From the NCBI GenBank assembly GCA_014729025.1, contig WJKP01000011.1, positions 6,500 through 70,499 on the forward strand: 64,000 bases of DNA. Reading direction: 5' to 3'. A program made the translations under genes and the position numbers. Source of the stretch: Candidatus Buchananbacteria bacterium. Its GTDB lineage: Bacteria; Patescibacteriota; Patescibacteriia; CAIXNZ01. The notes beneath the pieces were generated by a model, which saw only the letters and a list, made by a program, of their open reading frames with translations, ran no database searches and had not been told where the DNA came from. Of the stretch, positions 15,791 through 53,951 are shown piece by piece (the first letter of the stretch is position 1; each line of letters opens with the position of its first letter).

Positions 15791-16435
15791 ATGAAATTAA
15801 ATTGGTTAACAAAATTTTGTTTAGTAGCAGCCGGTTTATTATTAGGCGGTGTTTTTATTGTCCAAGCAGCCGGCTTTGTCAGTTATGAAGATAATAATAA
15901 AATAATAATTTGGGATCCGGTAAAAATGACAGGTAAAGGCTTGAAAATGTCTGCGGCCGGCGTTAATGATTTGGAAGACGTGCCAGACGGCGTGATTAAG
16001 ATTGAAGATAAAGATTTGTATGTTAGAAATTTTATGGGATTTGATTGCCCGAATTACCCGCAATCAACATCCTGTACAACCACACTTGGTAATATTGGCG
16101 GTAATTCTTTTTTAACTATTGATACAGTAAAAGGTGAGAATTTATATTTAAATGCTAATGGAGGGATTGATTTGAATTTACAGGGTGATGGATTGAAAAT
16201 ACAAGGTAAAATAATTATGCCTGGTGGTACAAATTCTCCTAGTTTATTTGTAGTAGATGATGATGATATGCCATCACCTAATTCTACGGTAACAAGCAGT
16301 GTTTTTGTTGATGATTTACATACCGCGTATTTGGGTGGGTTAAATAATTTAGACATACCAGGTCTTAAATTTGAAGAAGCTGCTTATTTTGATCCAAAAC
16401 GGATGATTTTTCTTGATTTAACTCCTACTAATTAA
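15791..16435 (+). CDS. Secreted hypothetical protein
   Basis: N-terminal signal/anchor 'KFCLVAAGLLLGGVFIVQAAG', Gly/Asn-rich beta-like body. Confidence 0.45.
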   Translation: MKLNWLTKFCLVAAGLLLGGVFIVQAAGFVSYEDNNKIIIWDPVKMTGKGLKMSAAGVNDLEDVPDGVIKIEDKDLYVRNFMGFDCPNYPQSTSCTTTLGNIGGNSFLTIDTVKGENLYLNANGGIDLNLQGDGLKIQGKIIMPGGTNSPSLFVVDDDDMPSPNSTVTSSVFVDDLHTAYLGGLNNLDIPGLKFEEAAYFDPKRMIFLDLTPTN

Positions 16436-16442
16436 TTTTAAT

Positions 16443-17243
16443 ATGAATAAATTTTTTAAAATAGCCCTTGCATTAAGTTTTCTCATTTTATGTTTAATTC
16501 TTGGTGATTTTGTTTTGGCTCAGGGAGATGGTTATTTTTTGGAAAAAGGTAATGAGTTTTTTATCTTTGATAATTTATATGTCAATGGTTATTTAACTGT
16601 CGGTAATGATATGCTGGGAGAAACCGCCAATTTGGGTGATGTTTTGGTTGGTGATAGGTTAATTTTGGATGCTGATTCCTCTTTTACTTTTTGTAAAAAA
16701 GAATTACAATCCGGTACTAATGCGATTTTAAACAGAGATTGTGAAGATAAAATAATGGTTTGGCATTCAGTTGCTGATAAAGGTTTGGAAGTTCTTGATA
16801 CTAATTTTTATGAATTAAATACCAATAATATAGAAACTTGGCCTCATTCAATAATAATGCAGCCCAATAACCGCATTTATACTGAGGTGCCCGTAAAATT
16901 AATTGGTATGCAGGGTTGTTTTTCTAACCGGGATTCTGATTGTAATGATGATGAATTAGAAACTACAACAGTTAAATTAAACAGCATCGCTTTATTTGGC
17001 GATAATACAAATATTAAAATAAATTCTGCTAATATTAATTTGGGTAACATAGATCTAGGAAGTTTCGATGACTTTAAGCGGCATGATTTATGCTGGCTGG
17101 CTAGCAGTATAAATTCCTGCCCAAAGGGTTTTACTCATCCGGCATTTAAAGAGACACCGGAAGAAGGGAGTGTTACCGTTACCAGGAGTTTGGATAGAGT
17201 GGAGGGTAATGTGTTATGTTGTTATTTGAATATAGCTTTTTAG
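16443..17243 (+). CDS. Secreted Cys-containing hypothetical protein (paralog family with the next gene)
   Basis: Signal peptide 'ALALSFLILCLILGDFVLAQG'. C-terminal CC motif '...NVLCCYLNIAF'. Confidence 0.45.
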   Translation: MNKFFKIALALSFLILCLILGDFVLAQGDGYFLEKGNEFFIFDNLYVNGYLTVGNDMLGETANLGDVLVGDRLILDADSSFTFCKKELQSGTNAILNRDCEDKIMVWHSVADKGLEVLDTNFYELNTNNIETWPHSIIMQPNNRIYTEVPVKLIGMQGCFSNRDSDCNDDELETTTVKLNSIALFGDNTNIKINSANINLGNIDLGSFDDFKRHDLCWLASSINSCPKGFTHPAFKETPEEGSVTVTRSLDRVEGNVLCCYLNIAF

Positions 17244-17255
17244 TAATAAAATTAT

Positions 17256-18128
17256 ATGTCAAGAATTTTTAAAATTTGTTTTATTATAGCTTTATTTATT
17301 TTTTCCGGTTCAGTGGCCTGGGCTGCTTTTAATTATGATTCTGCTAATAATTATTTTTTAATTGATTCAATTCTAAAAACTGGTGGCGATTATGTTTTAA
17401 TTGGTGAAGGGTTGTCAGGTTATTGTGAGAATGATAATTATATTAGTCAGGCGCAATGTGAGGCCAATAATAGTACTTGGTATGAAGTTTTGAGCAAAAT
17501 AGCTGCCGATGGTACTGAAACCGAAAGTACTTCGTTTTTTGCAGTTTCCAATAATTTGATTTTTCCTGCTAACGCTAGATTTATAAGTGGTGTCAGATCA
17601 ATGAATATAGATGAATTTTCAACTAATGCTATTTCAGTAAATAGCAGCAATAATTTTACCATAAGGACACCGGGCAGTTCTGGCACTTTATCATTTTTTG
17701 CGGGAGTAATTGAAATGCAACAAAAGTTTAGAATAAAAAATGGTTTAAGTTTTCGTAGTGGAATTACTGCAAATAATTTTGAAATACATGTTCCCAAGGT
17801 TTTAACTGAAAAAATAGAGCTTTTGGATTCTGCTGAAGATAAATTAACCATTACTTCTGACGGGTTGTATTTGACTGCCGGCGGTACAGCTACGGCTGCT
17901 GACATTTATTTTGGAACAGCTGATTCTAATTTATGTAAGGTGAAAAGTATAAATACTGCAGGGACTGGTCATTATACTGAAAACGATCAAATCGGAGATT
18001 TTAATTTAACTCAGACTGATTGTGATTCTGGCTATTATATTTATGATATTTCAGCCGATACCAGTAATTATAAAATGGTTTGTTGCCGTATTGACAATTG
18101 TCCGGGGGGAGGCGGAAATTGTTTTTAG
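17256..18128 (+). CDS. Secreted Cys-containing hypothetical protein
   Basis: Signal peptide 'FIIALFIFSGSVAWA'. C-terminal '...MVCCRIDNCPGGGGNCF' similar to the previous gene. Confidence 0.45.
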   Translation: MSRIFKICFIIALFIFSGSVAWAAFNYDSANNYFLIDSILKTGGDYVLIGEGLSGYCENDNYISQAQCEANNSTWYEVLSKIAADGTETESTSFFAVSNNLIFPANARFISGVRSMNIDEFSTNAISVNSSNNFTIRTPGSSGTLSFFAGVIEMQQKFRIKNGLSFRSGITANNFEIHVPKVLTEKIELLDSAEDKLTITSDGLYLTAGGTATAADIYFGTADSNLCKVKSINTAGTGHYTENDQIGDFNLTQTDCDSGYYIYDISADTSNYKMVCCRIDNCPGGGGNCF

Positions 18129-18169
18129 TATTATATAAAGAAAATTCTAATAGTAATTTAAAATTTATA

Positions 18170-18646
18170 ATGAATAAAATAAATAATAATTTCAAGTTTG
18201 AATTTGATAAAAAAATACAGCAAATAGAATTTAAAATTAATTCTAAGATTTATCCATTAACAACAATTTATCAGGCAACTTATTTATTTTTGGATAAGGT
18301 TTATGTTTTTTTAGATGGTCAGCCTGAGAAGGAAATTAAGGCGTTTTTCAAGCTTAAAGAGCATGTTAATAAAGAACAATTAGAAAATTTAGTCGGCCAA
18401 TTTTATAATGAACTTTTAAATCAGGTGTTAAGAGAAAAAATTAGCCAAGCTAATGATAAAATTAGAGAATACATTGTTTCCCAAGCGCTTTATAGCGCTG
18501 TACCTAGTGAGGTTGACGAGCTTTTAAAAGAAGTAGAAGATGATTGGCAAAAAGACCCTTTGGGAATTGCTCAGCCTTGGCAGGAAAAAAAACAAGCAGC
18601 AAAAAAATCAAAGAAAAGTTCAAAAAAAGTAAAGTCTAAAAAATAA
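18170..18646 (+). CDS. Hypothetical protein with Lys-rich C-terminal tail
   Basis: Start set at internal ATG (MNKINNN) to avoid overlapping the upstream gene. No recognisable motif. Confidence 0.4.
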   Translation: MNKINNNFKFEFDKKIQQIEFKINSKIYPLTTIYQATYLFLDKVYVFLDGQPEKEIKAFFKLKEHVNKEQLENLVGQFYNELLNQVLREKISQANDKIREYIVSQALYSAVPSEVDELLKEVEDDWQKDPLGIAQPWQEKKQAAKKSKKSSKKVKSKK

Positions 18647-18887: not shown

Positions 18888-20372
18888 ATGTTGGATTTAC
18901 AAACGATTAAAAAATTAAATGATAAACAGGCCGGATTCTTCCGTTTTAAAAAATTTGAAAATGACAATTATTTATTGACCAATGACATCGGCCATTACAT
19001 TTTTTTGCCAGAAACAGATTTTAAAAAATATATTCATGGCCGACTGGATAAAAAAAGCAAGCTTTATCAAAAATTAAAACAAAAATTATTTATTAAAGAT
19101 GAGGATTACCTTAAAAATTTCATTTGGCAGTATCGTCAGCGCAATTCTTTTTTGAAATACGGGCCGTCTTTGCATATTGTGGTTGTAACTTTAAGATGCA
19201 ATCATCGCTGTATTTATTGTCATGCCAGCGCTGCAACATGTAAAGATAAGAAATACGATATGGATCTAAAAACAGCCAAACTGGTAGTTGATACTATTTT
19301 TAAATCCAATAATAATGCGATTTGCATAGAATTTCAGGGTGGTGAACCGCTTTTAAACTGGCCAGTAGTAGAATTTATTATCAATTATGCTCAGGAAAAA
19401 AACAAATTAGAGAAAAAAAATTTAATTTTTCGGTTAGTTTCCAATTTTACTTTATTAGACCAAAAGAAAATGAATTTTTTAATGACTAATGAAGTTAATT
19501 TTTGTACATCCTTGGACGGTGACGAATCGACTCATAATTATAATCGTATTTTTACTGACGGTAATAGTTATAAAGAAACAGTAAAATGGATTAAAAAAAT
19601 CAATCAGGCTTATAAAGATAAATATAAAGGCAAAAAGAAAAATTATTATCGGGTAGGCGCTTTGATTACAGTAACTCGTAAAACTTTGGCTAATTATAAA
19701 CAGGTTATTGATACTTATATAAAGTTGGGTTTTCGGAACATTTATTTGCGTTATTTAAATCCTTTTGGCTTTGCTTTGCAAGCCAAAGAAAAAATATGGT
19801 ACAATCCTAAAGAATATATTGATTTTTATAAAAAAGCTTTTGATTATATTTTGGAAAAAAATTATCAAGGCAGGCATTTTTATGAAAGCATGGCAGCGAC
19901 TTATTTAAGAAAGATACTAAATCAGGAAGAACCGAATAATTTGGATTTCCGTTCGCCTTGCGGGGCAGTGATCGGTCAATTGGCTTATAATTACAATGGC
20001 GATGTTTATACTTGTGATGAGGGGCGGATGATTGCCAGGATGGGCGGTGATGAGATGTTTAAATTGGGTAATATAAAAAAAAATTCATTGGAAGAATTAA
20101 TTAATAATGATTTGTGTAAATCCGTTTGTTTTGCTTCGTGTGTTGATGGTTTACCGGGGTTTAGTGAAAACGTTTATAAACCTTATTTGGGTATTTGTCC
20201 GGTTTATAATTATTCCGTGCACGGTAATATTTTTCCAGCAATGAAAAATAATTTCCGCTGGCAAATAGATGAAGCAATTGTAGAATATTTATTTACTAAG
20301 CTTCAAAATAGAAAAAATCAGGATATTTTCCAAGAATGGGTCAAAAAATCAAAACCCCCGATTCCCAAATAA
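18888..20372 (+). CDS. Radical SAM/SPASM-domain peptide-modifying enzyme (anSME-like; candidate HxsB-type maturase)
   Basis: 'TLRCNHRCIYCHA' (CxxxCxxC). 'FQGGEPLL'. C-terminal SPASM-like Cys cluster 'SPCGAVIGQLAYNYNGDVYTCDEG...CKSVCFASC...GICPV'. Directly upstream of the repeat peptide. Confidence 0.8.
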   Translation: MLDLQTIKKLNDKQAGFFRFKKFENDNYLLTNDIGHYIFLPETDFKKYIHGRLDKKSKLYQKLKQKLFIKDEDYLKNFIWQYRQRNSFLKYGPSLHIVVVTLRCNHRCIYCHASAATCKDKKYDMDLKTAKLVVDTIFKSNNNAICIEFQGGEPLLNWPVVEFIINYAQEKNKLEKKNLIFRLVSNFTLLDQKKMNFLMTNEVNFCTSLDGDESTHNYNRIFTDGNSYKETVKWIKKINQAYKDKYKGKKKNYYRVGALITVTRKTLANYKQVIDTYIKLGFRNIYLRYLNPFGFALQAKEKIWYNPKEYIDFYKKAFDYILEKNYQGRHFYESMAATYLRKILNQEEPNNLDFRSPCGAVIGQLAYNYNGDVYTCDEGRMIARMGGDEMFKLGNIKKNSLEELINNDLCKSVCFASCVDGLPGFSENVYKPYLGICPVYNYSVHGNIFPAMKNNFRWQIDEAIVEYLFTKLQNRKNQDIFQEWVKKSKPPIPK

Positions 20373-20386
20373 TAAAATATAAATAT

Positions 20387-20839
20387 ATGAAAAATAAACT
20401 TCCCAAATTAAAGAAAAAATTTCAAGAATTTTTAAATGATGAAGAAGGGCGCATTACTAAAAAAGATATTATTATGCTAGGTATTGGCGTGACTGCTTTG
20501 GGTATTTTAGCCGAAGAAGCCGAAGCTTATAATTGCGGGCAATTGCCAGGCGGTTTAAGTAATAAAACCCCCAATCCGTGCGGTTCTCAACCTATGAGGC
20601 CAAATTCGCATACGACTTGCTGTAATATTAAACATTGTGGTAACAATGGTTACGAAAATGACAACTATAATGAGTTAATCGGCGATGTTAATCATAGTTG
20701 GGATCATAATAATTATATTCATAATAATGCCGAGGTTGGTACTCATTGTTCACATGGTTCGCACGGTTCGCATGGCTCGCATGGTTCGCACGGTTCACAT
20801 GGCTCGCATGGTTCGCACGGTTCGCATGGCTCATATTAA
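20387..20839 (+). CDS. His-Xaa-Ser-type repeat peptide/protein (candidate RiPP-like precursor, HxsA-like)
   Basis: Start at MKNKLP (20387). Basic N-terminus, one TM helix '[15 protein letters not shown]', a Cys/Asn-rich middle (6 Cys) and a C-terminal '[28 protein letters not shown]' (nine SHG units). Encoded by a 9-bp tandem repeat with synonymous codon variation. Confidence 0.7.
20749..20835 (+). repeat. 9-bp tandem repeat (about 9.5 copies) encoding the (Ser-His-Gly)n tail
   Basis: tcRcaYggY units: cat/cac, ggt/ggc, tcg/tca alternate. Synonymous variation argues for maintained coding repeats, not an artefact. Confidence 0.9.
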
Positions 20840-20842: not shown

Positions 20843-21808
20843 ATGTCTGAAAAATTTAAATTTTTAGAAATAGTTATTATTTTAACCCGTTCTTGTAATA
20901 AAAAAGAATGTAGTTATTGCCAGGTTAAAAAAGATTATAAAGTTAATAAACTGGAAAATAATTTATACCAATTAATTGAATTTTTGAAAAATAGTCCTGT
21001 AAAATCAGTTAGATTTTTAGGTGGTGAACCATTATTAAAATATAAGAAAATCAAGCAAATAATAAAAAATTTGCCCGATAAAAATTTTATAATCAATACG
21101 AATGGGTTGTTGTTAACTAAAGCCAAATCGGATTTTTTTAAAAAATACAATATCAAAATAATTTTAAGCCATGATGGTCAAGAACCCGATTTAAAAATTA
21201 ACAGATATTATACTGACAAGCAGATTGCGGTTATTAATGAAAATTTAATAAATTTAGAAAATTATCAAAAACAAACACAAATCAATTTAACCGTTTCACC
21301 GCAGACAATTGATAATTTATATAATAACCTGGCTTATATTTATAAGTTGGGTTTTAAAAAAATAAATATTTTGCCGGTTTTTTATCAGAACTGGCCACAG
21401 TCACAATTAAGACTATTAAAATTAGAGTTAAGTAAAATATTGGTTAATTTAAATAAATTCAAACAATTAGAATTGATTAATTTAAAATCATTCAGTTATT
21501 TGCCACTATTTAAAAATAGCTTATTAATAGATTGTGATGGTAATATTTTTTTCAGTACAGCCGTAATTGAAAAATTTTTCCACCAATACCGTAAGGAATT
21601 TATTAAGGCTAATATGATGATTTTATCAGAAAAAAAGAAAAATTATTCTGAGCTAAATTTTAAAGAAATTGAGGATTATAATAAGAAGATAGATAAATTG
21701 ATAATTAATGAGTTTTCTCACACAGTGATAACTTCTACGGAAAAAGTAAACAGGATTTTTGAAAATTTTATTAATAAATATTTAAAGATTAATAAAGCAA
21801 ATCTATGA
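20843..21808 (+). CDS. Radical SAM protein with non-canonical Cx4Cx2C cluster motif (candidate HxsC-type partner maturase)
   Basis: 'LTRSCNKKECSYC' (C-x4-C-x2-C). 'RFLGGEPLL'. 'INTNGLLL'. 4 nt downstream of the repeat peptide. Confidence 0.65.
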   Translation: MSEKFKFLEIVIILTRSCNKKECSYCQVKKDYKVNKLENNLYQLIEFLKNSPVKSVRFLGGEPLLKYKKIKQIIKNLPDKNFIINTNGLLLTKAKSDFFKKYNIKIILSHDGQEPDLKINRYYTDKQIAVINENLINLENYQKQTQINLTVSPQTIDNLYNNLAYIYKLGFKKINILPVFYQNWPQSQLRLLKLELSKILVNLNKFKQLELINLKSFSYLPLFKNSLLIDCDGNIFFSTAVIEKFFHQYRKEFIKANMMILSEKKKNYSELNFKEIEDYNKKIDKLIINEFSHTVITSTEKVNRIFENFINKYLKINKANL

Positions 21809-23304
21809 CACAAAAAATAAAAATTATTACATTGATCATAGTAATGATCATTTTAATTGTTGGCGGTTTATTATTATATTATTTTAAACCTGCTCCAAGT
21901 ATTAATCTGCCACCGCCAGTGGAAGAAGAAGAAAATTTGCAAACTAGATTGGAAAATGTCGTGGATTTTGGTTTTGTTAGTTCACCTTATACTTTGGATT
22001 CTATTTTAGAGTCAAGTGAATATCAGCAAATAAAACAAGAAGTTCATGATATTTGTTATGATGATAAAGGTAATTTGGGCTTGTATTTTTCTTGTTTAAG
22101 AGCTTTTGATACTTTTGCCGCCAATAAAATTAATAATCAATTACTTAATTTAAATCAGACGGATCAGCAGGATTTATTAACTAATTTGTATGAAATAGAT
22201 GAACGTTATGGGGTTCCAAGTCTGGATATTAGAACGCCTGAAATGATTTTTAGGACGCGAGAAGGTCAGGAATTAGTTAATTATTTTGAAGAAAACGCTA
22301 GTTTGGAGGATTTTAATTTTACCAATAATATTAATGAAATTTTTCAGCGCCAGTCTTTTAAAGAATGGTTAGATGATTTTCATGCTAAAAAACGTGAACT
22401 TTGTTATTTTCCTCCAGAAACTGATATTGCCAGAGATTGTGATTCTTTTACCACTCCTTATGCTAGTACTATTGTAATAAATTTTCTTTATCCGGAGAGA
22501 CAAGAAGAAGAAGTATTAAGTCTAGTTGGTGTTTTAGAACGAGGTATTTATAAAAGTGATGAAGATTTATTAGAAATATATAATAATTTATTGAGCCGTT
22601 ATTATAATGATTTTTTAGATAATTATGTTCAGGAAATGAAAAATAAATATCCGATTTTGGCTAGCGGACAAGTTACTGACTTGAATACTATTAATGATTT
22701 TCTCTTAGATCCTAACGATAGTTTAATTTATCAAGTCGGTAAATTATATTATTATGTGAATTATTTACATGTTGGTTCTAAAGGCAAGGTTAGGGATAAG
22801 CTCAACCAAAATTTAAATGATAAATTTGCAGAAGTAGCGGCTGATTTGGGTATTGACAATGACGATTTAAAGCAATATTTAATAGCAATTATTGGAGATG
22901 AAGAAGAAGTTATTGATCAATTAGTTAGTCAGTATAGAAACCTAAAAGTTAATTATCCAGCTAATGTTAATAAACTGGAAATCAATCCTACATTTATTTT
23001 TTGGGAAAGTATGGTCGAAGATCAGTATTATAATTATTTTACTGATGATTTTAATAATATTGATGCTTATTATGATGATTTGCGAACTTATAGATTGTAT
23101 ACTTATCTCTTGCTTTATTATAGCGATGACTATAAAAGTACTACTAATAGACAAGATGCTTTCGCTGAACGAGGTGAAGATGGCGGTCAAATGCAAAATG
23201 TATTTAAATTTAGCCGTTATATTGAAAGAGATGAATTGGATGAATTAATGAATTATTATAATAAAGAAAGAGGAACCATAATTGATTTGAGTGAAGGTCA
23301 TTAA
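21805..23304 (+). CDS. Membrane-anchored hypothetical protein
   Basis: N-terminal TM 'IITLIIVMIILIVGGLLLYYF', then a 470-aa soluble domain without recognisable motifs. Start overlaps the upstream stop (ATGA). Confidence 0.45.
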   Translation: MTQKIKIITLIIVMIILIVGGLLLYYFKPAPSINLPPPVEEEENLQTRLENVVDFGFVSSPYTLDSILESSEYQQIKQEVHDICYDDKGNLGLYFSCLRAFDTFAANKINNQLLNLNQTDQQDLLTNLYEIDERYGVPSLDIRTPEMIFRTREGQELVNYFEENASLEDFNFTNNINEIFQRQSFKEWLDDFHAKKRELCYFPPETDIARDCDSFTTPYASTIVINFLYPERQEEEVLSLVGVLERGIYKSDEDLLEIYNNLLSRYYNDFLDNYVQEMKNKYPILASGQVTDLNTINDFLLDPNDSLIYQVGKLYYYVNYLHVGSKGKVRDKLNQNLNDKFAEVAADLGIDNDDLKQYLIAIIGDEEEVIDQLVSQYRNLKVNYPANVNKLEINPTFIFWESMVEDQYYNYFTDDFNNIDAYYDDLRTYRLYTYLLLYYSDDYKSTTNRQDAFAERGEDGGQMQNVFKFSRYIERDELDELMNYYNKERGTIIDLSEGH

Positions 23305-23401
23305 AATTGATTAATTTCTAATATAAAAAACAGCCATAGATTATGGTTGTTTTTTATATTCAGATTGGGTATTATTATATATAGATTTGATTATTTTATT
23401 T

Positions 23402-24769
23402 ATGCCCCAAAATGAGAAAAAAATATTTAAGCAAAAATTTAAATTTTTAGATAAATATTTAGATTTATATAAAAAAGATTATTTGTCAGAATTTAAACTG
23501 GCCAAGGATTTTGTTTTTGAAAGGCTTAATCGCCGTAAAGAATGTACTTTTGATTATCCCCCTTATGTTTATTATAAAGAGGCAATAGATAAAGATCGTA
23601 ATCCTGATAACTTGTTTGACTTATGGCCGGATAAAACACCTTTTGTTATGTGTTTTTATTTTCCTTTCTGCACAAATAAATGCAGTTATTGTACTTTTAC
23701 AAATTTAAAGAAAAATATTGTCTCAGAATTTTCTGATTATTTGAAATATTATAAAAAAGAACTTTTGATGTATAAAGATTTGATTAAAAGAAATAAAATA
23801 AGCCATATTTATATTGGGGGTGGAACCCCGACTTTAATGACCGAGGAGCAATTAGAAGATTTATTAAAATTTATAAAAAAACATTTTTTACCTTATTTGC
23901 TTAAGCCTTTAGACGAGATAGAGTTTACCTGTGAAGCTTCTCCCCCGACTTTAACCGATAAAAAAATTAAAATATTAAAAAAATACGGTGTTAATACCAT
24001 TACTTTAGGTGTTCAGACACTAGATCCTAAGGTTTTAAAAACAATCGGCCGTTATCAGACAAAAGAACAGGTTATAAATGTTTTGCCTAAAATAATCAAG
24101 CTTTTTAAAGTCAATGTTGATATAATTGCCGGTTTACCAGCTAGTAATTTGCAGATTTTCGCTCAGGATTTAAATACGATAGTAAAATTAAAACCGCAGC
24201 ATTTAGGAGTTTATTTATTGACTTTATATGATCATTCTAAATTAGGTCAGTCTGATTATTATGTGCCACGTAAAGATTATCTGCAATATTATGATTTAGC
24301 TTATAAAACTTTATCAAAACAAGGTTATATTCATAGTACTTTTGAAGAATATTCATTGGATCATAAATATCGTTTAATGTATTTAGAAGATTTTCTGGAA
24401 AATAATCTGCATTTAACTACTGGTTTGGGTGACTCTGGTTTTACCGGAACTCATTGGTATAATAATACTGATGATATGGGTAAATATAAAAATTATATTA
24501 AAAATGGATTATTACCAATAGACAAGAAATATAAAATGACGATTGCGGATTTGCAAGTTAAATTTATTATTTATGGTCTTAGAAAATTAAATTTAAATAA
24601 AAAAGAATACCTTAAAATGTTTAATGAACCGATTGAAAAAAGATATTCTTTAGAAATAAACGCTTTAACTGATTTGGGTTTTTTGAAGCACGAGGGTAAT
24701 AAAATAGATTTAACCTATGAAGGCAAAAGAGATTTTGAGTTGATTATGCAGTTTTTTATGAGACTTTAG
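23402..24769 (+). CDS. HemN/HemW-like radical SAM protein
   Basis: 'FPFCTNKCSYCTF' CxxxCxxC. HemN-family 'IYIGGGTPTLM' (GGGTP) motif. C-terminal HemN_C-like region. Confidence 0.75.
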   Translation: MPQNEKKIFKQKFKFLDKYLDLYKKDYLSEFKLAKDFVFERLNRRKECTFDYPPYVYYKEAIDKDRNPDNLFDLWPDKTPFVMCFYFPFCTNKCSYCTFTNLKKNIVSEFSDYLKYYKKELLMYKDLIKRNKISHIYIGGGTPTLMTEEQLEDLLKFIKKHFLPYLLKPLDEIEFTCEASPPTLTDKKIKILKKYGVNTITLGVQTLDPKVLKTIGRYQTKEQVINVLPKIIKLFKVNVDIIAGLPASNLQIFAQDLNTIVKLKPQHLGVYLLTLYDHSKLGQSDYYVPRKDYLQYYDLAYKTLSKQGYIHSTFEEYSLDHKYRLMYLEDFLENNLHLTTGLGDSGFTGTHWYNNTDDMGKYKNYIKNGLLPIDKKYKMTIADLQVKFIIYGLRKLNLNKKEYLKMFNEPIEKRYSLEINALTDLGFLKHEGNKIDLTYEGKRDFELIMQFFMRL

Positions 24770-25553
24770 GCTCTAGTAAAAGCGAGTTATTAATAATTTT
24801 ATTGAAACGATTTTTTTCTATTTGTCGCGTTGATTTATAGGTTTGAAAATTCCCCTTATAAAATGAAGTATAATATTTATTTGTGAATTGCAATGGCTGA
24901 TTTTGTGGGTTTAGGCAATAATTGGGGCAATTTTTAATTATTTTTAAATAATTATTAGCTTGTTTGATTAAAGCTAGTGGACAAGTTCTACTTAAAGAAA
25001 AAATAATATAAGGTGTGTAAAGATTAATTTTAAGATTTTTAAGATTATCTAAAGCGATTCCTTGGCCCAGATTTTCAAGTTCAATTGTATCAATTTCATT
25101 TTTCAGTAACCAATCAGCAAATAAAGGATTATTAATTACATTATAAGTGCAAATTTTATCAAATTTAGTTTTAAAATGAGCATAATATGGATCTTTTTTT
25201 TGATTAGCAATAAAGATGCCGGCAATTAGTTTAATATTTTTATTTTTCAAATAATCCCACCCCCCCCAATCATTAAAAACTAATTCAAAAATATTTTCAG
25301 CTTGATTATTTTTTATGATTTTAATTATTTTATCTAAGTATTCAAAATAATTATTAGGTAATAAAGGCGTAAGTAAGGTTAGTCTTTTTTTATTTTTTTG
25401 GGATTTTTTTAAATATGATTGAAAAATTTCAGGTTGAGGTAATAAAAATGGGCAAGTATTTGAACCAATATAAAAATTATCATATTTCGGTAAATAAGTA
25501 TCAAATTGTTGAGGTGTTAAAATTTGAATAGCTTGGTTAGTCTTTTGGAGCAT
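24756..25553 (-). CDS. U32-family-like protein (possible UbiV/partner-type subunit)
   Basis: 265 aa. Overlaps the next U32 gene by 17 nt. N-terminal 'FYIGSNTCPF' resembles the start of the second U32 module in UbiU/UbiV-type pairs. Weak. Confidence 0.4.
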   Translation of the reverse strand: MLQKTNQAIQILTPQQFDTYLPKYDNFYIGSNTCPFLLPQPEIFQSYLKKSQKNKKRLTLLTPLLPNNYFEYLDKIIKIIKNNQAENIFELVFNDWGGWDYLKNKNIKLIAGIFIANQKKDPYYAHFKTKFDKICTYNVINNPLFADWLLKNEIDTIELENLGQGIALDNLKNLKINLYTPYIIFSLSRTCPLALIKQANNYLKIIKNCPNYCLNPQNQPLQFTNKYYTSFYKGNFQTYKSTRQIEKNRFNKIINNSLLLEPKVS

Positions 25554-26466
25554 AAGGGCAAATATGACAATAGTTTTTTTTAAAAATTATTTGATGTAAT
25601 AATTTAGCTTTTTTTTGAAATTGTAAATGATTAGGATAATTTTGAGCAATATTTTGAGCTTGCTTGATAAATAAAACCATCAGTCCTTTATCCCTGGCTG
25701 ATCTGTCACGGCCAACTATTTTTCCGCTAACAATATTTTTTTGTTCTTTAAAAAGTGATAAAAAACAGGCTCGGCATAGTGTTTTCTGACGAATAATTGT
25801 TTGGAAATTTTTTTCTAATTTTTTATCAATTGAAGTATAAAGCGGTTCTCTTTCACAAACAAATTCAATTCCGTCTGGTTTCATGAAATGGATTGATGAA
25901 CACAACCCATCAATATTAGAACAATTATCATCATAAATAAAAACTTCGAATTCAATTTGAGGCAGATTTTTAGCTAAATTACTAATCTCATTAATTGTCA
26001 GGTTGCGGGGAAGTATAATTCGGTTAATTTTAAAATTCTTACACCAAAATTGCGCTGATTTAGTATTTATAACTTGATCAAGCGAACTTAAATGAATGGG
26101 TAGACTTTTAGTTAATTTTCTTATAAGTTTAATAATAATAGGATCTTTGGCTATAATCGCGTCAGGCTTAATTTCTATGATTTTTTTTAGCTCATTATTT
26201 ATTTGATGTGTACCAGAAAAAATAGTATCAGTATTAAAAACAACATTAACTTTTTTATTATTTTTGCGAGCGGAATTAATGACTTGTTTGGCTTCTAAAA
26301 AAGAAGTAGTATTAGCCAAAATATTGTCCCGACGATTTAAATGGTTGTAAAATTGATTTTTTTTATGCCAATCTTGAGAAAAAATTCCCATATAAAATTC
26401 ATCTGCTCCGTTTTTTATTAAAGCAGGTAATTCAGTATAGCGTGAAATTGGGGCTAAGATTTTCAT
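25537..26466 (-). CDS. Peptidase U32 family protein (Fe-S RlhA/TrhP/UbiU-like)
   Basis: N-terminal 'MKILAPISRYTELPALIKNGADEFYMGIF' matches the U32 signature (M-x-LLAPAG-x-E-x-L-x-A-x-GADAVY-GG). Several downstream Cys could ligate a 4Fe-4S cluster. Confidence 0.65.
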   Translation of the reverse strand: MKILAPISRYTELPALIKNGADEFYMGIFSQDWHKKNQFYNHLNRRDNILANTTSFLEAKQVINSARKNNKKVNVVFNTDTIFSGTHQINNELKKIIEIKPDAIIAKDPIIIKLIRKLTKSLPIHLSSLDQVINTKSAQFWCKNFKINRIILPRNLTINEISNLAKNLPQIEFEVFIYDDNCSNIDGLCSSIHFMKPDGIEFVCEREPLYTSIDKKLEKNFQTIIRQKTLCRACFLSLFKEQKNIVSGKIVGRDRSARDKGLMVLFIKQAQNIAQNYPNHLQFQKKAKLLHQIIFKKNYCHICPYAPKD

Positions 26467-26524: not shown

Positions 26525-27862
26525 ATGGTTAAAAATAATTTATTAATTAAGGAAAAAATAGCTAGTAAACCGAAGTATTGGCTTAGGTTGAGTTATGCTT
26601 GTAATAATAATTGTTTGTTTTGTTTAGATAAAGAGGCACAAAGTAATAATGAGCAATTTGTTTCAGAAAAAGATTTGCAATCAGAAATAAAGCAAGCTTT
26701 AAAAGAAGGATATCGGAAAATTATTTTAAGTGGAGGTGAACCAACAATTCATCCTCGTTTTTTGCATCTTGTGAAATTTTGTCAAAATTTAGGTTTTGAA
26801 AGAATTCAAATTATTACTAATGGCAGAATGTTAGCTTATCGTAAATTTGCCAGACAAACCTTGATAAGCGGGGTCAATGAAGTGACTTTTTCTTTGCATG
26901 GACTTGATGCACAAACCCACGATTATTTAGTCGGAGTTGAAGGAGCTTATGATCAATTAATTCAGGGGTTACATAATATTCGAGCGTCTAATTGCATTAT
27001 AAATATTGATATTGTACTTAATAAAAAAAATATTAAGCAGGTTCATGAGATTATTGATTTTTTTTCTAAAAATTATAGTATTTATGAATATGATCTTTTA
27101 CATTTAATACCTTTTGGTAATGCTTTTAAAAATTTATCAAATTTGGTTTTATCATATAAAGATTATCAGCAAAAAAGCTGGCAGAAAGTTTTGACTTTGG
27201 CAAAGAATGATAAGAGATATTTTATTTGGACTAACCGCTTGCCAGCCCAATATTTAGAAGACCATGAAGCTTTAATCCAAGACCCCCATAAATTATCGGA
27301 TGAATTAAAGGGGCGAAGGCATATGTTTGAAAATTATTTGCAAAATAACAAAGAGCTTGCTTGTAAAGATGGTCAACGTTGTGCTTTTTGTTTTTTGCAT
27401 GATTTTTGTTTGAAGTTATCTCAGTTTAAGGAGAATATTAATTATAAACCTAAATATAATATTAAATTTTTAACTCAAAAAAATTTAAATGAATTAAATT
27501 CTAATAATTTAATTGTAGCAATTAAAAATTTTGAGTTTTTGGAAAAGTTAAAAGACCAAACAGTTAATCTGGATGAGTTCAAGAATAAGACTAAAAACGG
27601 AAATTTAAAATTTATTAATTTACCTTATTGTCTAGCTGGCCAGAATAATCAAGTTGTTTATGATTTTTTGATTTATTTGCCAAAAGTTTTGAATAACAAA
27701 AAACAGATTGATTTGCATAAATTTGCCAAAATGTATATTAGCAATTTATATTATTTGAAATCAGTGAGGTGTGATGATTGTAAATACAATAATCAATGCG
27801 CTGGTTGGCATATTAATTATTTAAGATATTATGGTTTTAAAATTTTAAAACCAGTTAAATAG
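26525..27862 (+). CDS. Radical SAM protein, tandem paralog 1, with C-terminal Cx2Cx5C twitch-like motif and extra Cys-rich insert
   Basis: 'LRLSYACNNNCLFCLD'. 'LSGGEPTIHP'. 'ITNGRML'. C-terminal 'LPYCLAG...CDDCKYNNQCAGWHINYLRYYGF'. Confidence 0.8.
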   Translation: MVKNNLLIKEKIASKPKYWLRLSYACNNNCLFCLDKEAQSNNEQFVSEKDLQSEIKQALKEGYRKIILSGGEPTIHPRFLHLVKFCQNLGFERIQIITNGRMLAYRKFARQTLISGVNEVTFSLHGLDAQTHDYLVGVEGAYDQLIQGLHNIRASNCIINIDIVLNKKNIKQVHEIIDFFSKNYSIYEYDLLHLIPFGNAFKNLSNLVLSYKDYQQKSWQKVLTLAKNDKRYFIWTNRLPAQYLEDHEALIQDPHKLSDELKGRRHMFENYLQNNKELACKDGQRCAFCFLHDFCLKLSQFKENINYKPKYNIKFLTQKNLNELNSNNLIVAIKNFEFLEKLKDQTVNLDEFKNKTKNGNLKFINLPYCLAGQNNQVVYDFLIYLPKVLNNKKQIDLHKFAKMYISNLYYLKSVRCDDCKYNNQCAGWHINYLRYYGFKILKPVK

Positions 27863-27863
27863 T

Positions 27864-28751
27864 ATGAAAGAAAAAAGACTGGAAATTTTCATAACTTTTA
27901 AGTGTAATAACGATTGTCTTTTTTGCGTGGAAAAAACAAATAAGGATAAATATAAGGGTAAACAAATTTTTAGGGATAAACAGCATATTGAAGAAGAATT
28001 GAATAAATATCGCAAGCAAGGTTACACTTATTTGAATTTATTAGGCGGGGAACCTTTTTTAGCGAAAGATTTTTCGACTATTTTGCAGACCTCCAAATCC
28101 TTGGGTTTTGTTGTGGCCTTAGCGACAAATGCCAGTGTCTTATCTTCAGAAAAAATAGCCGAACAATATTTGCCATATATTGATGAATTAATTGTTTCAA
28201 TTCATGGCCATAATAAATTATTAATTAATCAGATTAGTCAAAATCCTAATTTGTATGATAAGTTAATTAAAGGTTTGAATAATATTAAAAAATATTTTAA
28301 AGGCCGGTTATTAAAAGCAAATTGCGTGATTAATAATTTAAATCATAAATATTTACTTGATATTTTAAAATTTATAAATAAATTCAATATAAAAGAAGTT
28401 AATTTAACTTATATGGATATTGATAAATATTGCCAAAATTATGTTGTTAAGATGGAAGATTTGCGTCCTTTGATTAAACCTTTGGTTGATTATAGTGAAC
28501 AACAAAATATGGTTTTGCGTTTTTCTGAATTACCATATTGTGTTTTAGGCGATTATTATTATCTGGCTAATGATTTGTATTTTCAAAATCGGGATAAGTA
28601 TTTTGTTGATGGCAAAAAAGACAAGGTTTATTTTTGGAAAAAATATAAAGGCAAAGTTTGTCAGGATTGCAATGTTACGGATATTTGTAAGGGGCTAAAC
28701 AAGGATTATTATAAACTTTATGGTGATAAAGAATTAATTGCTTTTCAATAA
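27864..28751 (+). CDS. Radical SAM protein, tandem paralog 2
   Basis: 'ITFKCNNDCLFCVEK'. 'LLGGEPFL'. C-terminal 'LPYCVLG...CQDCNVTDICKGLNKDYYKLYG'. Confidence 0.8.
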   Translation: MKEKRLEIFITFKCNNDCLFCVEKTNKDKYKGKQIFRDKQHIEEELNKYRKQGYTYLNLLGGEPFLAKDFSTILQTSKSLGFVVALATNASVLSSEKIAEQYLPYIDELIVSIHGHNKLLINQISQNPNLYDKLIKGLNNIKKYFKGRLLKANCVINNLNHKYLLDILKFINKFNIKEVNLTYMDIDKYCQNYVVKMEDLRPLIKPLVDYSEQQNMVLRFSELPYCVLGDYYYLANDLYFQNRDKYFVDGKKDKVYFWKKYKGKVCQDCNVTDICKGLNKDYYKLYGDKELIAFQ

Positions 28752-29700
28752 TATGAAAAATTTGGAAATAAATATTGGCAAGGCTTGTAATAATAAATGT
28801 AAATTTTGCATGAGTATAAATTCTATTCCTGAATTTTTGCGTTTTGCTGATTTTGCAGATTTAAAAAATGATTTAATTAAATACAAAAAACAAGGTTATG
28901 ATTCTTTGGGTTTTTTGGGCGGGGAAGTCACTTTGTACCCCAAATTAGTTGATTTGGTTAATTTAGCTAAAGAATTAGGATTTAAAGAAATTCATTTGAT
29001 TACTAATGGTCGGAATTTAAAAGACATGGCTTATACGCAGTCCTTGGTTGAAAATGGTATAACTCGTTTTTCTTTATCAATTCATAGTCATTGCGCCCAT
29101 GTAGAAGATGACTTGACTCAAGTTCCTGGTGGTTTTAAGGAAAAAATTCAAGGCCTTAAAAATTTATTAGAATTATCTAATCAAGGAATAATAAAAAAAG
29201 AGATTTGTTTGAATTTGGTTGTTAATAAAAAAAATTATCAAGATTTGGTAAAAACATTCAGTTTTTTTAGCAAATTAGGTGTTAAAAATTTTCGTTTTAA
29301 TTTTATGTGGCCCAGAGGTAATGCAAGTCAATATTTCAAAGAACTTTTGCTTTCTTATAAAGATTTTTTGCCTTATTTAAAGAAATTAATAAATTTAGCC
29401 AAAGTTTTAAGAGTACATTTAGTTTTTGAGGGATTGCCATTTTGTATTTTAAAAGATTTTGATCAAAAAGAAATTAAAAATTATATCGGTGAATTATTGG
29501 ATTTTAAAACTGATGTTTCTGATTTTAATTTTGATAAAAAAGAACGTTATGCTTTTAATTGGCAAGAACGCAAGAAAAACGAATTAAAAGAAAAAAGAGC
29601 AGAATGTGAGAAATGTTTTTATAATTCCATTTGTGAAGGTGTTTGGAAAGAATATATAAAATTTTATGGTTGGGAAGAATTTCAGCCAGTTATTAAATAA
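28738..29700 (+). CDS. Radical SAM protein, tandem paralog 3
   Basis: 'NIGKACNNKCKFCMS'. 'FLGGEVTLYP'. 'ITNGRNL'. C-terminal 'LPFCILKDF...CEKCFYNSICEGVWKEYIKFYGW'. Alternative start at 28753 (MKNLEI). Confidence 0.8.
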   Translation: MLFNNMKNLEINIGKACNNKCKFCMSINSIPEFLRFADFADLKNDLIKYKKQGYDSLGFLGGEVTLYPKLVDLVNLAKELGFKEIHLITNGRNLKDMAYTQSLVENGITRFSLSIHSHCAHVEDDLTQVPGGFKEKIQGLKNLLELSNQGIIKKEICLNLVVNKKNYQDLVKTFSFFSKLGVKNFRFNFMWPRGNASQYFKELLLSYKDFLPYLKKLINLAKVLRVHLVFEGLPFCILKDFDQKEIKNYIGELLDFKTDVSDFNFDKKERYAFNWQERKKNELKEKRAECEKCFYNSICEGVWKEYIKFYGWEEFQPVIK

Positions 29701-29702
29701 TT

Positions 29703-30632
29703 ATGGCAAATTTAGGTTATATTCAATTAAATAGAGTTTGTAATCAAGCCTGTCTTTTTTGTTCCAATCCTGATACTGGGGCAAGCTTAAATTTTATTGA
29801 ATTTAAGGATAAGGTTGCAGATTTGATTAAAAGAAATTATGATGGAGTTATTTTAACCGGCGGCGAGCCGACCTTGATAGATTATTTGCCAGAAGCAATT
29901 AAATTTTGCACTGAGAAGAAAATTAATTCTCGTTTAATTACTAATGGGCAAAATACAGCTAATTTTGAATATTTGAAAAAGTTAAAAGATTCTGGTTTGA
30001 ATCTGATGCATGTTTCTTTATATTCTTATAAAACTAAAATTCAAAATTATTTAAGTCAAAATAATGATTCTTATAATAATATTATTAAGACTTTAAAAAA
30101 TGCAACTAAATTAAATATCGTAATTAATATTAATACTGTAATTAATAAGTATAATGCTGATCATTTGGATAAAACCGTTTTTTTTATAATAAGAAATTTT
30201 CCGCAAATAAAGCATTTTGTTTTTAATAATCTTGACCCATATATGAATCGAGCTTCGCAGAATAAACATACCATACCAGGTTTATTTGATTTTGAAATAT
30301 CATTAAATAAAGCAATGCAAATATTATTTAAAAATAATAAAACTTTTCGGGTAGAACGAGTACCTTTATGTTATATGGGCGATTTTCCGCAGTTTAGCAC
30401 TGAAACAAGAAAAATTATTAAACAAGAAGAAAGAGTTGTTCATTTTTTGGATGAAAAGGGTCTGATTAGGCAGGATACCGATTCATTTAAATATAAAAAA
30501 GGTAAAGTTTGTAAAAGATGTAATTTAAATGATATTTGTGCCGGCTTATATTCTTTAGGTGAATATTTTGCGGAAAAAGAATTAAAGCCTGTCAAGAATG
30601 TTACTAAAGAACAAGTTAAAGCAAAATTATGA
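29703..30632 (+). CDS. Radical SAM protein, tandem paralog 4
   Basis: 'QLNRVCNQACLFCSN'. 'LTGGEPTL'. 'ITNGQN'. C-terminal 'VPLCYMGDF...CKRCNLNDICAGLYSLGEYF'. Confidence 0.8.
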   Translation: MANLGYIQLNRVCNQACLFCSNPDTGASLNFIEFKDKVADLIKRNYDGVILTGGEPTLIDYLPEAIKFCTEKKINSRLITNGQNTANFEYLKKLKDSGLNLMHVSLYSYKTKIQNYLSQNNDSYNNIIKTLKNATKLNIVININTVINKYNADHLDKTVFFIIRNFPQIKHFVFNNLDPYMNRASQNKHTIPGLFDFEISLNKAMQILFKNNKTFRVERVPLCYMGDFPQFSTETRKIIKQEERVVHFLDEKGLIRQDTDSFKYKKGKVCKRCNLNDICAGLYSLGEYFAEKELKPVKNVTKEQVKAKL

Positions 30633-31309
30633 ATATTGATTTATTAACAAAATGCGAATGTAATTGTGTTTTTTGTGATAAGCAGACTGTTAAGGGTGTT
30701 GAATCTATTAATGAACTAAAAGATATTTTGGAGGATTTTAATGAGTCAATAATTTTTTTAGGTGGACAAGAACCATTTAATTTTAAGGATTTAGATTTAT
30801 TAATTGCTTTTTTAAAAAATAAAGCGCCTGATAGCAAAATAATAATAAAATCTTCAGGTTGTTTTGATTATAAAAAATTGCCCCGGGTTTTATTTGAAAA
30901 AATCGAGATAATAGAATTGCCATTATATTCTTGCTCAAGTGAAATACACAATAAAATAATGGGGAATAATCAGGCTTGGGAACTGCTTTTTGCTTTTGTT
31001 GATTTTTTAAAAGAAAATAATTTACAGAATAAAATTTTGTTTCATACAATGGTTTTAAAGGATAATTTTAAAGAATTATTTGCTATTTATGATTTTGTTT
31101 TAGACAATTTACCTGATCAGCAGTATTTTAAGATTATTTACCCCTTGAAAAATATAAGTAAAATAGAATATGAAAAAATTATTGTACCGCAAGATTTAGT
31201 TATTAAGCAGCTATTTGCTGATTTCCCAGAAGATATATTGCAAAATAAAATTGAATTAATAAATTTCCAACCTTCTAAAGAACAAATTAAATTTAGAAAT
31301 GTTTTATAA
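30629..31309 (+). CDS. Small radical SAM-like protein (mini-rSAM, 226 aa)
   Basis: 'LTKCECNCVFCDK' contains CxxxCxxC. 'FLGGQEPF'. No C-terminal auxiliary Cys motif. Confidence 0.6.
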   Translation: MNIDLLTKCECNCVFCDKQTVKGVESINELKDILEDFNESIIFLGGQEPFNFKDLDLLIAFLKNKAPDSKIIIKSSGCFDYKKLPRVLFEKIEIIELPLYSCSSEIHNKIMGNNQAWELLFAFVDFLKENNLQNKILFHTMVLKDNFKELFAIYDFVLDNLPDQQYFKIIYPLKNISKIEYEKIIVPQDLVIKQLFADFPEDILQNKIELINFQPSKEQIKFRNVL

Positions 31310-31314
31310 ATTTT

Positions 31315-45819: not shown

Positions 45820-45894
45820 TATGGCGGGCAGGCAAGTGGTATTTAAAATTTTTATATTCTTGGGGAGTCGCCAAGTGGTAAGGCACCAGGTTCT
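45820..45894 (+). repeat. Direct repeat copy 2 (native tRNA-Gln promoter plus 5' half)
   Basis: See copy 1. An additional 12-nt fragment 'TGGGGAGTCGCC' (tRNA 5' end) occurs again at 45792-45803. Confidence 0.85.
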
Positions 45895-45935
45895 GGTCCT
45901 GGCATTCGCGGGTTCGAATCCTGCCTCCCCAGCCA
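45861..45935 (+). tRNA. tRNA-Gln (anticodon CUG), CCA encoded
   Basis: 75 nt. Acceptor TGGGGAG/CTCCCCA (U1-A72, as in bacterial tRNA-Gln). D-arm GCC-AAGTGGTAA-GGC. Anticodon stem CCAGG/CCTGG with loop TTCTGGT. T-arm GCGGG-TTCGAAT-CCTGC. Discriminator G, then CCA. Confidence 0.9.
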
Positions 45936-45954
45936 CAAGAACTTTTTATCGAGG

Positions 45955-45978
45955 AAGACCCGAGTGGGTCTTTTTTGA
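45955..45978 (+). terminator. Rho-independent terminator after tRNA-Gln
   Basis: AAGACCC-GAGT-GGGTCTT followed by TTTTTT. Confidence 0.75.
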
Positions 45979-46073
45979 TTTTTATTCAAATTGACTCTAA
46001 GCTATAATAAGGGTAAAATATAAGTAATTTAAGTAGCCCCAAAGGGGCCCCTTCGGGGCTAAAATTAAAATTT

Positions 46074-46652: not shown

Positions 46653-46671
46653 TTAGTTTAAATAATTTTTT

Positions 46672-50294: not shown

Positions 50295-50298
50295 TAAT

Positions 50299-52299: not shown

Positions 52300-52303
52300 A
52301 TAA

Positions 52304-52341
52304 TTCCTTATTAATAGTTAATTACTCTCTACTATAAGGAA
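52304..52341 (+). repeat. Imperfect inverted repeat immediately upstream of the serine recombinase gene (candidate att core or operator)
   Basis: TTCCTTATTAATAG-N11-CTACTATAAGGAA. The arms are near reverse complements. Confidence 0.4.
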
Positions 52342-52395
52342 TGACGCAACCTTGCTAGGGAGTCCAGGCTGGTTAGTAGGCAAACTGTAGATAAC

Positions 52396-53940: not shown

Positions 53941-53951
53941 ATTTTTTAAAG

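Follow-up and report, generated by a model that had tools for sequence, protein, structure and literature searches.

What is the small protein with nine consecutive Ser-His-Gly units that Candidatus Buchananbacteria, a member of the Parcubacteria in the candidate phyla radiation (CPR), encodes beside a long array of radical S-adenosylmethionine (rSAM) enzymes, and what do those enzymes make of it? The open reading frame (ORF) occupies positions 20387–20839 of a 64,000-nt stretch of the metagenome-assembled genome (MAG) GCA_014729025.1 (contig WJKP01000011.1, positions 6,500–70,499 of the forward strand). This whole stretch is called the window here, and all coordinates are given in it. An earlier note, made from the letters of the window alone, had taken the ORF for the substrate of the adjacent rSAM enzymes. 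Its translation was reproduced exactly, and the neighbours that it named were all recovered: an rSAM enzyme with a SPASM domain upstream, a further rSAM enzyme downstream, and, at 33112 and 35904, genes of GT9-like and A24-like type, respectively. Our analysis puts a name to this arrangement. With a probability of roughly 0.7, the product of the ORF is an HxsA-type protein, the substrate of a His-Xaa-Ser (Hxs) system in an extended form marked by HxsA3/HxsA4, HxsC4, and HxsD-like components.

Assignment of the repeat ORF to the Hxs systems

The decisive gene lies immediately upstream. The SPASM enzyme is HxsB, which scored 514.9 bits against a curated cutoff of 370, and it follows genes for HxsD and a small HxsD-like protein, both of which also exceed their cutoffs (Table 1), so that the substrate role proposed for the ORF now belongs to a named system. 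HxsB already bears this name in the NCBI/GenBank record of the MAG (MBD3359212.1). Directly downstream of it, the ORF provides the tandem His-Xaa-Ser substrate, with nine H-G-S units. When proteins were searched with the precursor, 285 homologues were found. A genome scan with an HxsB alignment returned 369 relatives, from which 80 loci were retrieved (given L numbers below); Patescibacteria, Saccharibacteria among them, are represented, as are Omnitrophota, Elusimicrobiota, Myxococcota, and others. HxsD homologues were clustered from 53 loci, and tblastn detected the HxsD-like protein in 30. Of the 83 loci, about 50 carry an H-x-S repeat ORF adjoining HxsB; the earlier note had proposed a search of related genomes for repeat ORFs beside rSAM genes.

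The precursor itself stops just short of the curated substrate models. It scored 49.2 bits against a cutoff of 55 for HxsA4 (NF038313), with an alignment limited to the C-terminal module (aa 112–149), and 45.9 against 65 for HxsA3 (NF038309), with an alignment limited to the N-terminal module (aa 5–47), because a 73-aa insert splits the two modules. The HxsA4 cutoff is exceeded (63.5–109 against 55) by relatives without a long insert, which belong to Omnitrophota, Saccharibacteria, Elusimicrobiota, and Myxococcota. This kind of peptide has already been named, through an in silico family, curated models, and an experiment published in 2026, and its divergence lets the present precursor escape automatic naming. 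The lesson for annotation is that HxsA4-like precursors with inserts drop below the curated cutoffs and are left as "hypothetical."

The in silico definition of the Hxs family is credited to Haft and Basu (PMC9062424). The experimental work concerns the canonical four-gene HXS system, which is a proven anti-phage system: in Escherichia coli, HxsB, HxsC, and HxsD are all required for the N-terminal processing and periplasmic accumulation of HxsA, HxsC binds HxsD, each H-x-S unit is required, maturation is accompanied by a +8 Da change at an S-H-R-S-S motif, and mature HxsA blocks the entry of phage DNA (Li et al., Nat Commun 2026; PMC13128918). According to the same study, 99.7% of HXS systems occur in Pseudomonadota, with the gene order D-B-C-A (PMC13128918). 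Hxs has therefore been recognised as an anti-phage barrier only recently and in the four-gene proteobacterial form alone. The locus described here, with its roughly 150 relatives, represents a much larger Hxs form outside Pseudomonadota, in which the substrate is reduced to a leader and a repeat array and HxsC has radiated.

Leader, insert, and repeat array of the precursor family

Family statistics were taken from 147 unique sequences, comprising 146 relatives and the window protein. After a basic N-terminus, they share a leader of the pattern h-K-K-x-h-x-x-F-L-x-[SDE]-E-[ES]-G-K-I-x-K-K, in which F15 and E19 are conserved in 100% and G21 in 88% of sequences. A hydrophobic stretch of 12–15 residues follows, with G, A, or S in 99% at the position of G32 and in 93% at that of G39. 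Beyond a variable middle region, an H-x-N-x-h-H-N-S-G-G-like motif often precedes the C-terminal (S-H-x)n array of 3–51 units, and the protein usually ends in an aromatic residue (GQW, GSW, GSY). The window protein carries all the conserved positions of this HxsA3/A4-type family, in the leader, in the short hydrophobic segment with its small residue at +11, and in the repeats: its N-terminus is K-rich, the hydrophobic stretch I28–A42 follows the leader, and nine S-H-G units (aa 122–148, nt 20750–20830) are followed by S-Y and the stop codon. Alignment with the N-termini of the homologues favoured ATG 20387 over 20336 as the start. The exact protein, whether read as 150 or 167 aa, is absent from a 15-billion-protein collection in which every tested neighbour is present, and the numbering of accessions and locus tags leaves exactly one slot for it (MBD3359213.1/GF365_00685); the deposited gene call probably uses a different start. 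The earlier note had read the hydrophobic stretch as a transmembrane anchor. A stable anchor is doubtful, given that the stretch has only 15 residues with A-x-A after it; no 19-residue span of the precursor reached the transmembrane threshold in a Kyte-Doolittle scan, and A45-E46-A47 resembles a signal peptidase I site.

The precursor contains six Cys residues (C50, C65, C78, C79, C84, and C121), which had been proposed as thioether sites. The middle region, at 73 aa compared with a family median of 21, holds five Cys, the family maximum, whereas 131 of the 146 relatives have none or one there. The insert could not be aligned with L004 or L005, which have almost no insert, and L086 contains a different Cys-rich insert. 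Within the window protein's own clade, the leader is nearly invariant, and the only conserved Cys residues are the first after A-x-A and C121; a four-sequence alignment of the clade showed H107, N108, N109, H112, N113, G118, H120, and C121 to be invariant. The Cys-rich middle is thus a lineage-specific insert and not a core feature. With five of the six Cys residues in this lineage-variable segment, the thioether proposal was not sustained, and the precursor does not display the conserved Cys pattern expected of thioether precursors (sacti-/ranthipeptide and SCIFF-type).

Several relatives showed unusual arrangements. In L023 (3311–4822) and L082 (12703–14265), a protein with the leader and H-x-S repeats carries a fused C-terminal domain of ~335 aa; the two domains share 42% identity and have no counterpart in the window or in the other loci. 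In L013 (11594–12220), a single HxsB gene is followed by two precursor genes in tandem, one with 20 H-x-S units and one with 6, and in L004 (11470–11600), the 5′ end of the precursor gene contains a leader fragment that is duplicated in another frame and runs into a stop, either an assembly artefact or a real partial duplication.

A conserved leader together with a dedicated protease is typical of peptides that are made on ribosomes and modified after translation (RiPPs), and the ORF might accordingly be the precursor of a released RiPP, in which HxsB-type His-to-Ser cyclophanes would form in each H-G-S unit, thioethers would form at Cys, and, once the leader was cut, a small bioactive peptide would be secreted. 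The H-x-S unit fits the aromatic-X-X pattern, as the earlier note pointed out, and the chemistry is plausible, since three-residue cyclophanes linking His-C2 to C-beta are established for HAA, HNR, and HTK motifs (PMC11499958). HxsB, a SPASM maturase of peptides, has PapB and SCIFF-type enzymes among its relatives. However, HxsB scored far below the cutoffs of the YhhB (51.4 against 445) and GrrM/OscB (40.2 against 310) models, and the rSAM protein encoded at 20843 reached 25.8 bits against a cutoff of 425 in the same comparison, which covered the YhhB, GrrM/OscB, and AmcB cyclophane-synthase models. The sole measured Hxs modification is +8 Da rather than −2 Da, and the Cys residues are not conserved. 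Products of 50–200 residues with up to 51 repeats are nearer to a modified protein than to a small RiPP, and the signal-like segment after the leader points to export without a RiPP transporter; no cluster-linked transporter is present. We consider a released RiPP unlikely and prefer the Hxs assignment.

At the nucleotide level, the repeat codons alternate between TCA and TCG, CAT and CAC, and GGT and GGC, from which the earlier note had concluded that the array is maintained at the protein level and is neither a cloning His-tag nor a product of recent slippage. Tandem Repeats Finder resolved two periods, one of 9 bp (9.6 copies, 81% match, score 116) and one of 27 bp (3.0 copies, 96% match, score 153). 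The synonymous variation is thus mostly confined within a 27-bp, three-unit block that is itself almost perfectly triplicated, so that a recent expansion by 27-bp slippage or recombination is compatible with the array, and this part of the conclusion was withdrawn. Maintenance at the protein level is shown instead by the closest relatives, in which identical S-H-G units are written in other codons (TCT, TCC, and GGG) and occur in different copy numbers (7, 7, and 8 in L004, L086, and L005, respectively). Copy numbers of the H-x-S unit span 3–51 among the 146 relatives, and their median, 9, is also the number in the window protein. Both a cloning His-tag, as the note had held, and an assembly artefact were ruled out by homologues of the same architecture in many independent assemblies. 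The Pfam scan of the precursor yielded no N_methyl or pilin match and no domain beyond a sub-threshold collagen-like match (Pfam Collagen, 21.8 against a cutoff of 27.2). A collagen-like triple helix, with Gly at every third residue, was set aside because about 39% of the repeat units in the family have Ser, Ala, or another residue as Xaa, Gly accounting for about 61%.

An array with His at every third residue over 27–150 residues, further His in the pre-repeat motif, and conserved Cys flanking the array would also suit a secreted or surface-bound metal-binding peptide (a Ni/Zn/Cu chaperone, a metallophore, or a storage peptide), the sites of which would be tuned or rigidified by the rSAM enzymes and which would play no part in phage defence. 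The position of the cluster among housekeeping genes, not in a defence island, agrees with such a role. Nevertheless, no linked metal transporter, regulator, or metalloenzyme was found in the window or in the loci examined, the homologous canonical system is anti-phage, and simple metal binding leaves an array of five to nine rSAM enzymes unexplained. We judge this explanation to be quite improbable.

Proposed modifying enzymes and the FlaK-like protease

Nine genes of the cluster encode a Radical_SAM domain: HxsB, the gene at 20843, the HemN-like gene at 23387, and six consecutive genes at 26525–33105. Five of the six are clearly HxsC-like, and the short 30629–31309 protein matches HxsC weakly. 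The five HxsC-like paralogs share 23–35% identity among themselves, and each has its own ortholog in the clade relatives, with 36–74% identity; because each is closer to its ortholog than to the other paralogs, the paralogs are ancient and presumably non-redundant. Clustering identified HxsC-like arrays in 44 loci, homologues of the HemN-like protein in 12, and homologues of the "r4" protein encoded at 20843 in 21, the last with a canonical Cx3Cx2C motif in 23 of 27 members. The last HxsC-like protein (31315–33105) bears a C-terminal APH-like domain that is 31.5% identical over 222 aa to the APH protein encoded at 34627–35901; the clade relatives L085, L088, and L089 have a PEP-utilizers (PF00391) protein in place of APH. 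The HxsC-like enzymes were also considered as viperins and rejected (75.5 bits against a cutoff of 180). A scan of metagenome contigs with the rSAM gene 29703–30629 found a single 1-kb fragment only, and a scan for promoters and terminators gave results at chance level. The exact sequences of the HxsB and GT9-like proteins had no match in the contig index.

Among the accessory genes, the Peptidase_U32-family protein and its 265-aa partner recur as a pair in L003, L009, and L017, on the opposite strand within the cluster. UbiU/UbiV/TrhP-type U32 proteins are O2-independent hydroxylases, and by analogy peptide hydroxylation by the U32 protein is conceivable. BLASTP between the U32 protein and its neighbour was not significant, and a UbiU/UbiV-like heterodimer would be a guess. 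The 499-aa protein (21805–23304) has no Pfam or NCBIfam match and no homologue in any locus. It stands near the position at which relatives encode Cys-rich membrane proteins: the non-rSAM gene directly flanking the precursor encodes a protein with an N-terminal transmembrane or signal segment in 20 of 21 cases, mostly of 255–351 aa with 10–17 Cys, the window protein being longer (examples: L001:10308–11195, L002:9027–10001, L004:11976–12890, L005:11933–12850, L006:11816–12739, and L086:3047–3955). The position of these flanking proteins is conserved, and no homology between clades was detected with phmmer or by hhalign (best probability, 71%).

The earlier note had also proposed that the GT9-like protein heptosylates the Ser residues of the repeats. 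In 5.8 billion sequences, the only match to this protein was itself; it is missing from six related clusters and carries no autotransporter domain. Neither it nor the stand-alone APH protein has a clear counterpart in L085–L089, the lone trace being a weak APH-like match in L089. Both genes are local additions, not conserved parts of the system, and the heptosylation idea therefore loses its basis.

The last gene of the cluster encodes the A24-like protein, in which both catalytic Asp residues are invariant and the model matches FlaK, placing it with Peptidase A24. Homologues lie inside Hxs-type clusters in 10 of 84 regions (nine loci and the window), from Omnitrophota, a MAG labelled as Spirochaetes, Elusimicrobiota, and Patescibacteria, and around its closer relatives, all five neighbourhoods examined run rSAM array, A24-like gene, cysteinyl-tRNA synthetase gene. 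The suggestion that the peptidase belongs to the system was thus upheld, and the FlaK-like protease is evidently a component of the cluster. For its cleavage site, the earlier note had pointed to the junction between TALG and ILAEE. The small residue at G39 is indeed kept, as the 93% figure shows, whereas the EE is not conserved, and this junction is one candidate among several; G32 (class III-like), G39, and A45-E46-A47 (signal peptidase I-like) are all candidate points.

The presence of a FlaK-fold GxGD protease conserved in the cluster and the 99% conserved K-hydrophobic-[G/A/S] junction at G32 raise the possibility that the precursor is a pilin-like protein with a class III signal peptide, cleaved by the A24 enzyme at the leader/hydrophobic junction and located in or with type IV pilus-like structures of CPR bacteria. 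The Hxs cluster immediately follows a type IV pilus operon in Saccharibacteria and in one further Patescibacteria locus, and four N_methyl proteins are encoded upstream in L003. Only ~10 hydrophobic residues follow the junction, however, compared with ~20 in pilins, the family does not conserve Glu+5, and Pfam gives neither an N_methyl nor a pilin match; the pilus linkage is mostly restricted to one clade, may reflect inherited synteny, and is not seen beside the window cluster, where there are no pilus genes. A pilin-like identity would surprise us greatly. The operon in question (PilM, pilins with G-F-T-L-I-E, PilT, PilC, and PilD) stands upstream of HxsD in L006, L007, L008, L009, L011, L017, L019, and L049, and its adjacency could represent either inherited synteny or a functional link.

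Elsewhere in the window, three consecutive secreted proteins with N-terminal signal-like segments, two of them with Cys-rich tails (e.g., CCRIDNCPGGGGNCF), are encoded before HxsD at 15791–18128; their synteny extends to L004 and L005, and Pfam returned no match for any of them. The region 45861–58369 looks like a mobile or defence patch (Table 1).

Table 1. Coordinates of the Hxs-type cluster, the parts of the precursor gene, and other features of the window
Feature	Position	Strand	Evidence
HxsD	18098–18646 (ORF drawn from TTG 18098; likely start ATG 18167)	+	TIGR03976 (LLNDYxLRE family), 58.8 vs cutoff 50, aa 47–134
HxsD-like small protein, 66 aa	18651–18851	+	NF038315 HxsD_rel, 81.4 vs cutoff 41
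HxsB, radical SAM/SPASM maturase	18888–20372	+	TIGR03978, 514.9 vs cutoff 370, full length; Pfam Radical_SAM and SPASM
HxsA4/HxsA3-like His-Xaa-Ser repeat precursor, 150 aa	20387–20839	+	NF038313/NF038309 sub-cutoff matches; 285 homologues
Leader (aa 1–27), 15-aa hydrophobic stretch (aa 28–42; G32/G34/G39), and E-E-A-E-A (aa 43–47)	20387–20527	+	Per-position statistics, 147 relatives
Variable Cys-rich insert, aa 48–106 (C50, C65, C78, C79, C84)	20528–20704	+	Middle-region comparison across the family
Pre-repeat motif H-N-N-[YF]-[IV]-H-N-x-x-x-x-G-[ST]-H-C, aa 107–121	20705–20749	+	Four-sequence clade alignment
(Ser-His-Gly)x9; 9-bp unit nested in 27-bp unit x3	20750–20830	+	Tandem Repeats Finder and codon listing
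Radical SAM protein, "r4" type, atypical Cx4Cx2C (C18-x4-C23-x2-C26)	20843–21808	+	Pfam Radical_SAM, 49.8 bits
499-aa protein, N-terminal transmembrane-like segment (aa 7–25), 4 Cys	21805–23304	+	Position near the Cys-rich membrane protein slot of relatives
HemN-like (class C-type) radical SAM	23387–24769	+	Pfam Radical_SAM, 87.6; HemN/HemW/ChuW NCBIfam matches sub-cutoff
Peptidase_U32-family protein (25537–26466) and 265-aa partner (24756–25553)	24756–26466	−	PF01136, 101.4; weak TrhP and UbiU matches
Six consecutive rSAM genes (26525–27862, 27864–28751, 28738–29700, 29703–30632, 30629–31309, 31315–33105)	26525–33105	+	Top NCBIfam matches HxsC/HxsC4, all sub-cutoff
GT9-like protein	33112–34623	+	PF01075, 41.2 bits, aa 407–470 only
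APH-family kinase	34627–35901	+	PF01636, 37.4 bits
FlaK/A24-type GxGD membrane aspartyl protease, 502 aa, last cluster gene	35904–37412	+	Catalytic Asp; FlaK model match
tRNA	45861–45932		Within the 45861–58369 patch
Eco57I/MmeI-type restriction-modification fusion	46672–49539		
Serine recombinase	50983–52299	−	
ParB-methylase	54354–55679	−	
LOOT RNA	56016–56142		79.6 bits; directly upstream of the GmrSD-type nuclease
GmrSD-type nuclease	56189–58369		

Proposed pathway and comparison with known systems

Building on the family membership, conservation, and protease fold described above, we infer a chemistry, a cleavage site, and a biological role for the Hxs-type precursor as follows. The invariant 27-aa leader would serve as a cytoplasmic handle for HxsD, the HxsD-like protein, and HxsB. 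HxsB, the ancient, non-redundant HxsC-like rSAM enzymes, the HemN-like rSAM enzyme, and the U32 enzyme would then modify His and/or Ser covalently in the (S-H-G)9 array and in the preceding H-N-N-x-I-H-N...H-C motif, by homology to E. coli HXS. The short hydrophobic segment would target the peptide to the membrane, and the leader would be cut by the FlaK-like GxGD protease, a member of the cluster, and/or by signal peptidase I after A-E-A. The result would be a cross-linked peptide of roughly 100 residues, rich in His and located outside the cytoplasm. By analogy with HXS, this product may oppose incoming phage DNA at the envelope. This last step is the least secure, and the analogy, the best available, is weak here because a peptidoglycan-binding domain is missing from the substrate, the cluster belongs to a CPR bacterium, and its surroundings are housekeeping genes.

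A broader proposal can be put forward tentatively, although we think it rather less probable than its negation: the extended Hxs clusters of CPR bacteria, Omnitrophota, and Elusimicrobiota may constitute a distinct pathway, in which a FlaK-type GxGD intramembrane protease is the dedicated leader peptidase and five to nine non-redundant rSAM enzymes install several different modifications on a single (S-H-G)n array, giving a heavily cross-linked, His-rich envelope polymer. If so, this would be the first link of class III-signal-peptidase-type processing to RiPP-like maturation, and Hxs-type systems would be widespread outside Pseudomonadota with a different effector architecture. About 19 kb of a small-genome episymbiont go into this one peptide, an outlay that argues for the product being important to the bacterium itself. 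The substrate is simple and repetitive, with Gly as Xaa, and its modification could be easier to determine by mass spectrometry and nuclear magnetic resonance than that of E. coli HxsA.

In comparison with other known systems, the window cluster resembles the triceptide systems of the maturases HaaB, YhhB, and HtkB, which act on H-A-A, H-N-R, and H-T-K, respectively, in its repeated aromatic-X-X units with His first, its SPASM rSAM enzyme, and its leader-bearing substrate. It differs from them in that HxsB falls outside the characterised cyclophane-synthase families of NCBIfam, the substrate is protein-sized and has a signal-like segment, and the mass shift known for Hxs is not that of a cyclophane. 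Compared with Aah/TibC and their substrates AIDA-I/TibA, the GT9 match is limited to a short segment (aa 407–470) and is not conserved with the repeat substrate. Compared with the class III signal peptidases FlaK, PibD, and PilD, the 502-aa protease has about 340 extra residues; it gave no hhalign match to bona fide PilD, and its Pfam score is marginal. The precursor, for its part, does not have the long hydrophobic N-terminal helix of the class III substrates, the pilins and archaellins.

With E. coli/Klebsiella HXS, the window shares HxsB and HxsD orthologues above curated cutoffs, further HxsC-related rSAM proteins, and a substrate that combines His-Xaa-Ser units in tandem with an export-type hydrophobic segment near the N-terminus and is expected to undergo N-terminal processing. 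The differences include the invariant 27-aa leader before that segment, five HxsC-like paralogs and three other rSAM enzymes in place of a single HxsC, the FlaK-like protease in the cluster, and the CPR host. The following points weigh against the Hxs assignment or its proposed pathway. The substrate has no peptidoglycan-binding domain, its repeats form a contiguous C-terminal (S-H-G)9 array instead of five spaced units near the N-terminus, and the genes run D, D-like, B, A, rSAM array where the canonical system has D-B-C-A; the architecture differs from that of the sole characterised system, so function is not simply transferable. No rSAM protein of the window reached the cutoff for HxsC (TIGR03977; best 127.9 against 267.9, 26525–27862) or for HxsC4 (best 179 against 500), and the precursor lies below the curated HxsA3 and HxsA4 cutoffs and does not match the canonical HxsA model. 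PADLOC 2023 contains no Hxs model and gave weak, generic viperin-like rSAM matches only. The cluster stands among housekeeping genes, with DnaK, DnaJ, and GcpE upstream and cysteinyl-tRNA synthetase downstream. Within Parcubacteria, much of the association between the A24-like gene and the cluster is attributable to shared synteny, and the hydrophobic region past G32 does not have the length of a classical class III (pilin-like) substrate. To our knowledge, no chemistry has been established for any HxsA4-type system.

In the literature searched, no paper described the HxsA3, HxsA4, HxsC4, or HxsD-like variants or the extended architecture, so the combination found here, a substrate of leader plus repeats, several conserved HxsC paralogs, and a FlaK-like protease within the cluster, is new to that literature. 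Its nearest counterparts are the curated NCBIfam families HxsA4 (NF038313), HxsA3 (NF038309), HxsC4 (NF038332), and HxsD-like (NF038315). The window protein departs from HxsA3 and HxsA4 by its sub-cutoff scores and by the 73-aa Cys-rich insert between the two modules, and it shares with them the leader, the C-terminal S-H-x module, and the association with HxsD-like and HxsC4-like proteins.

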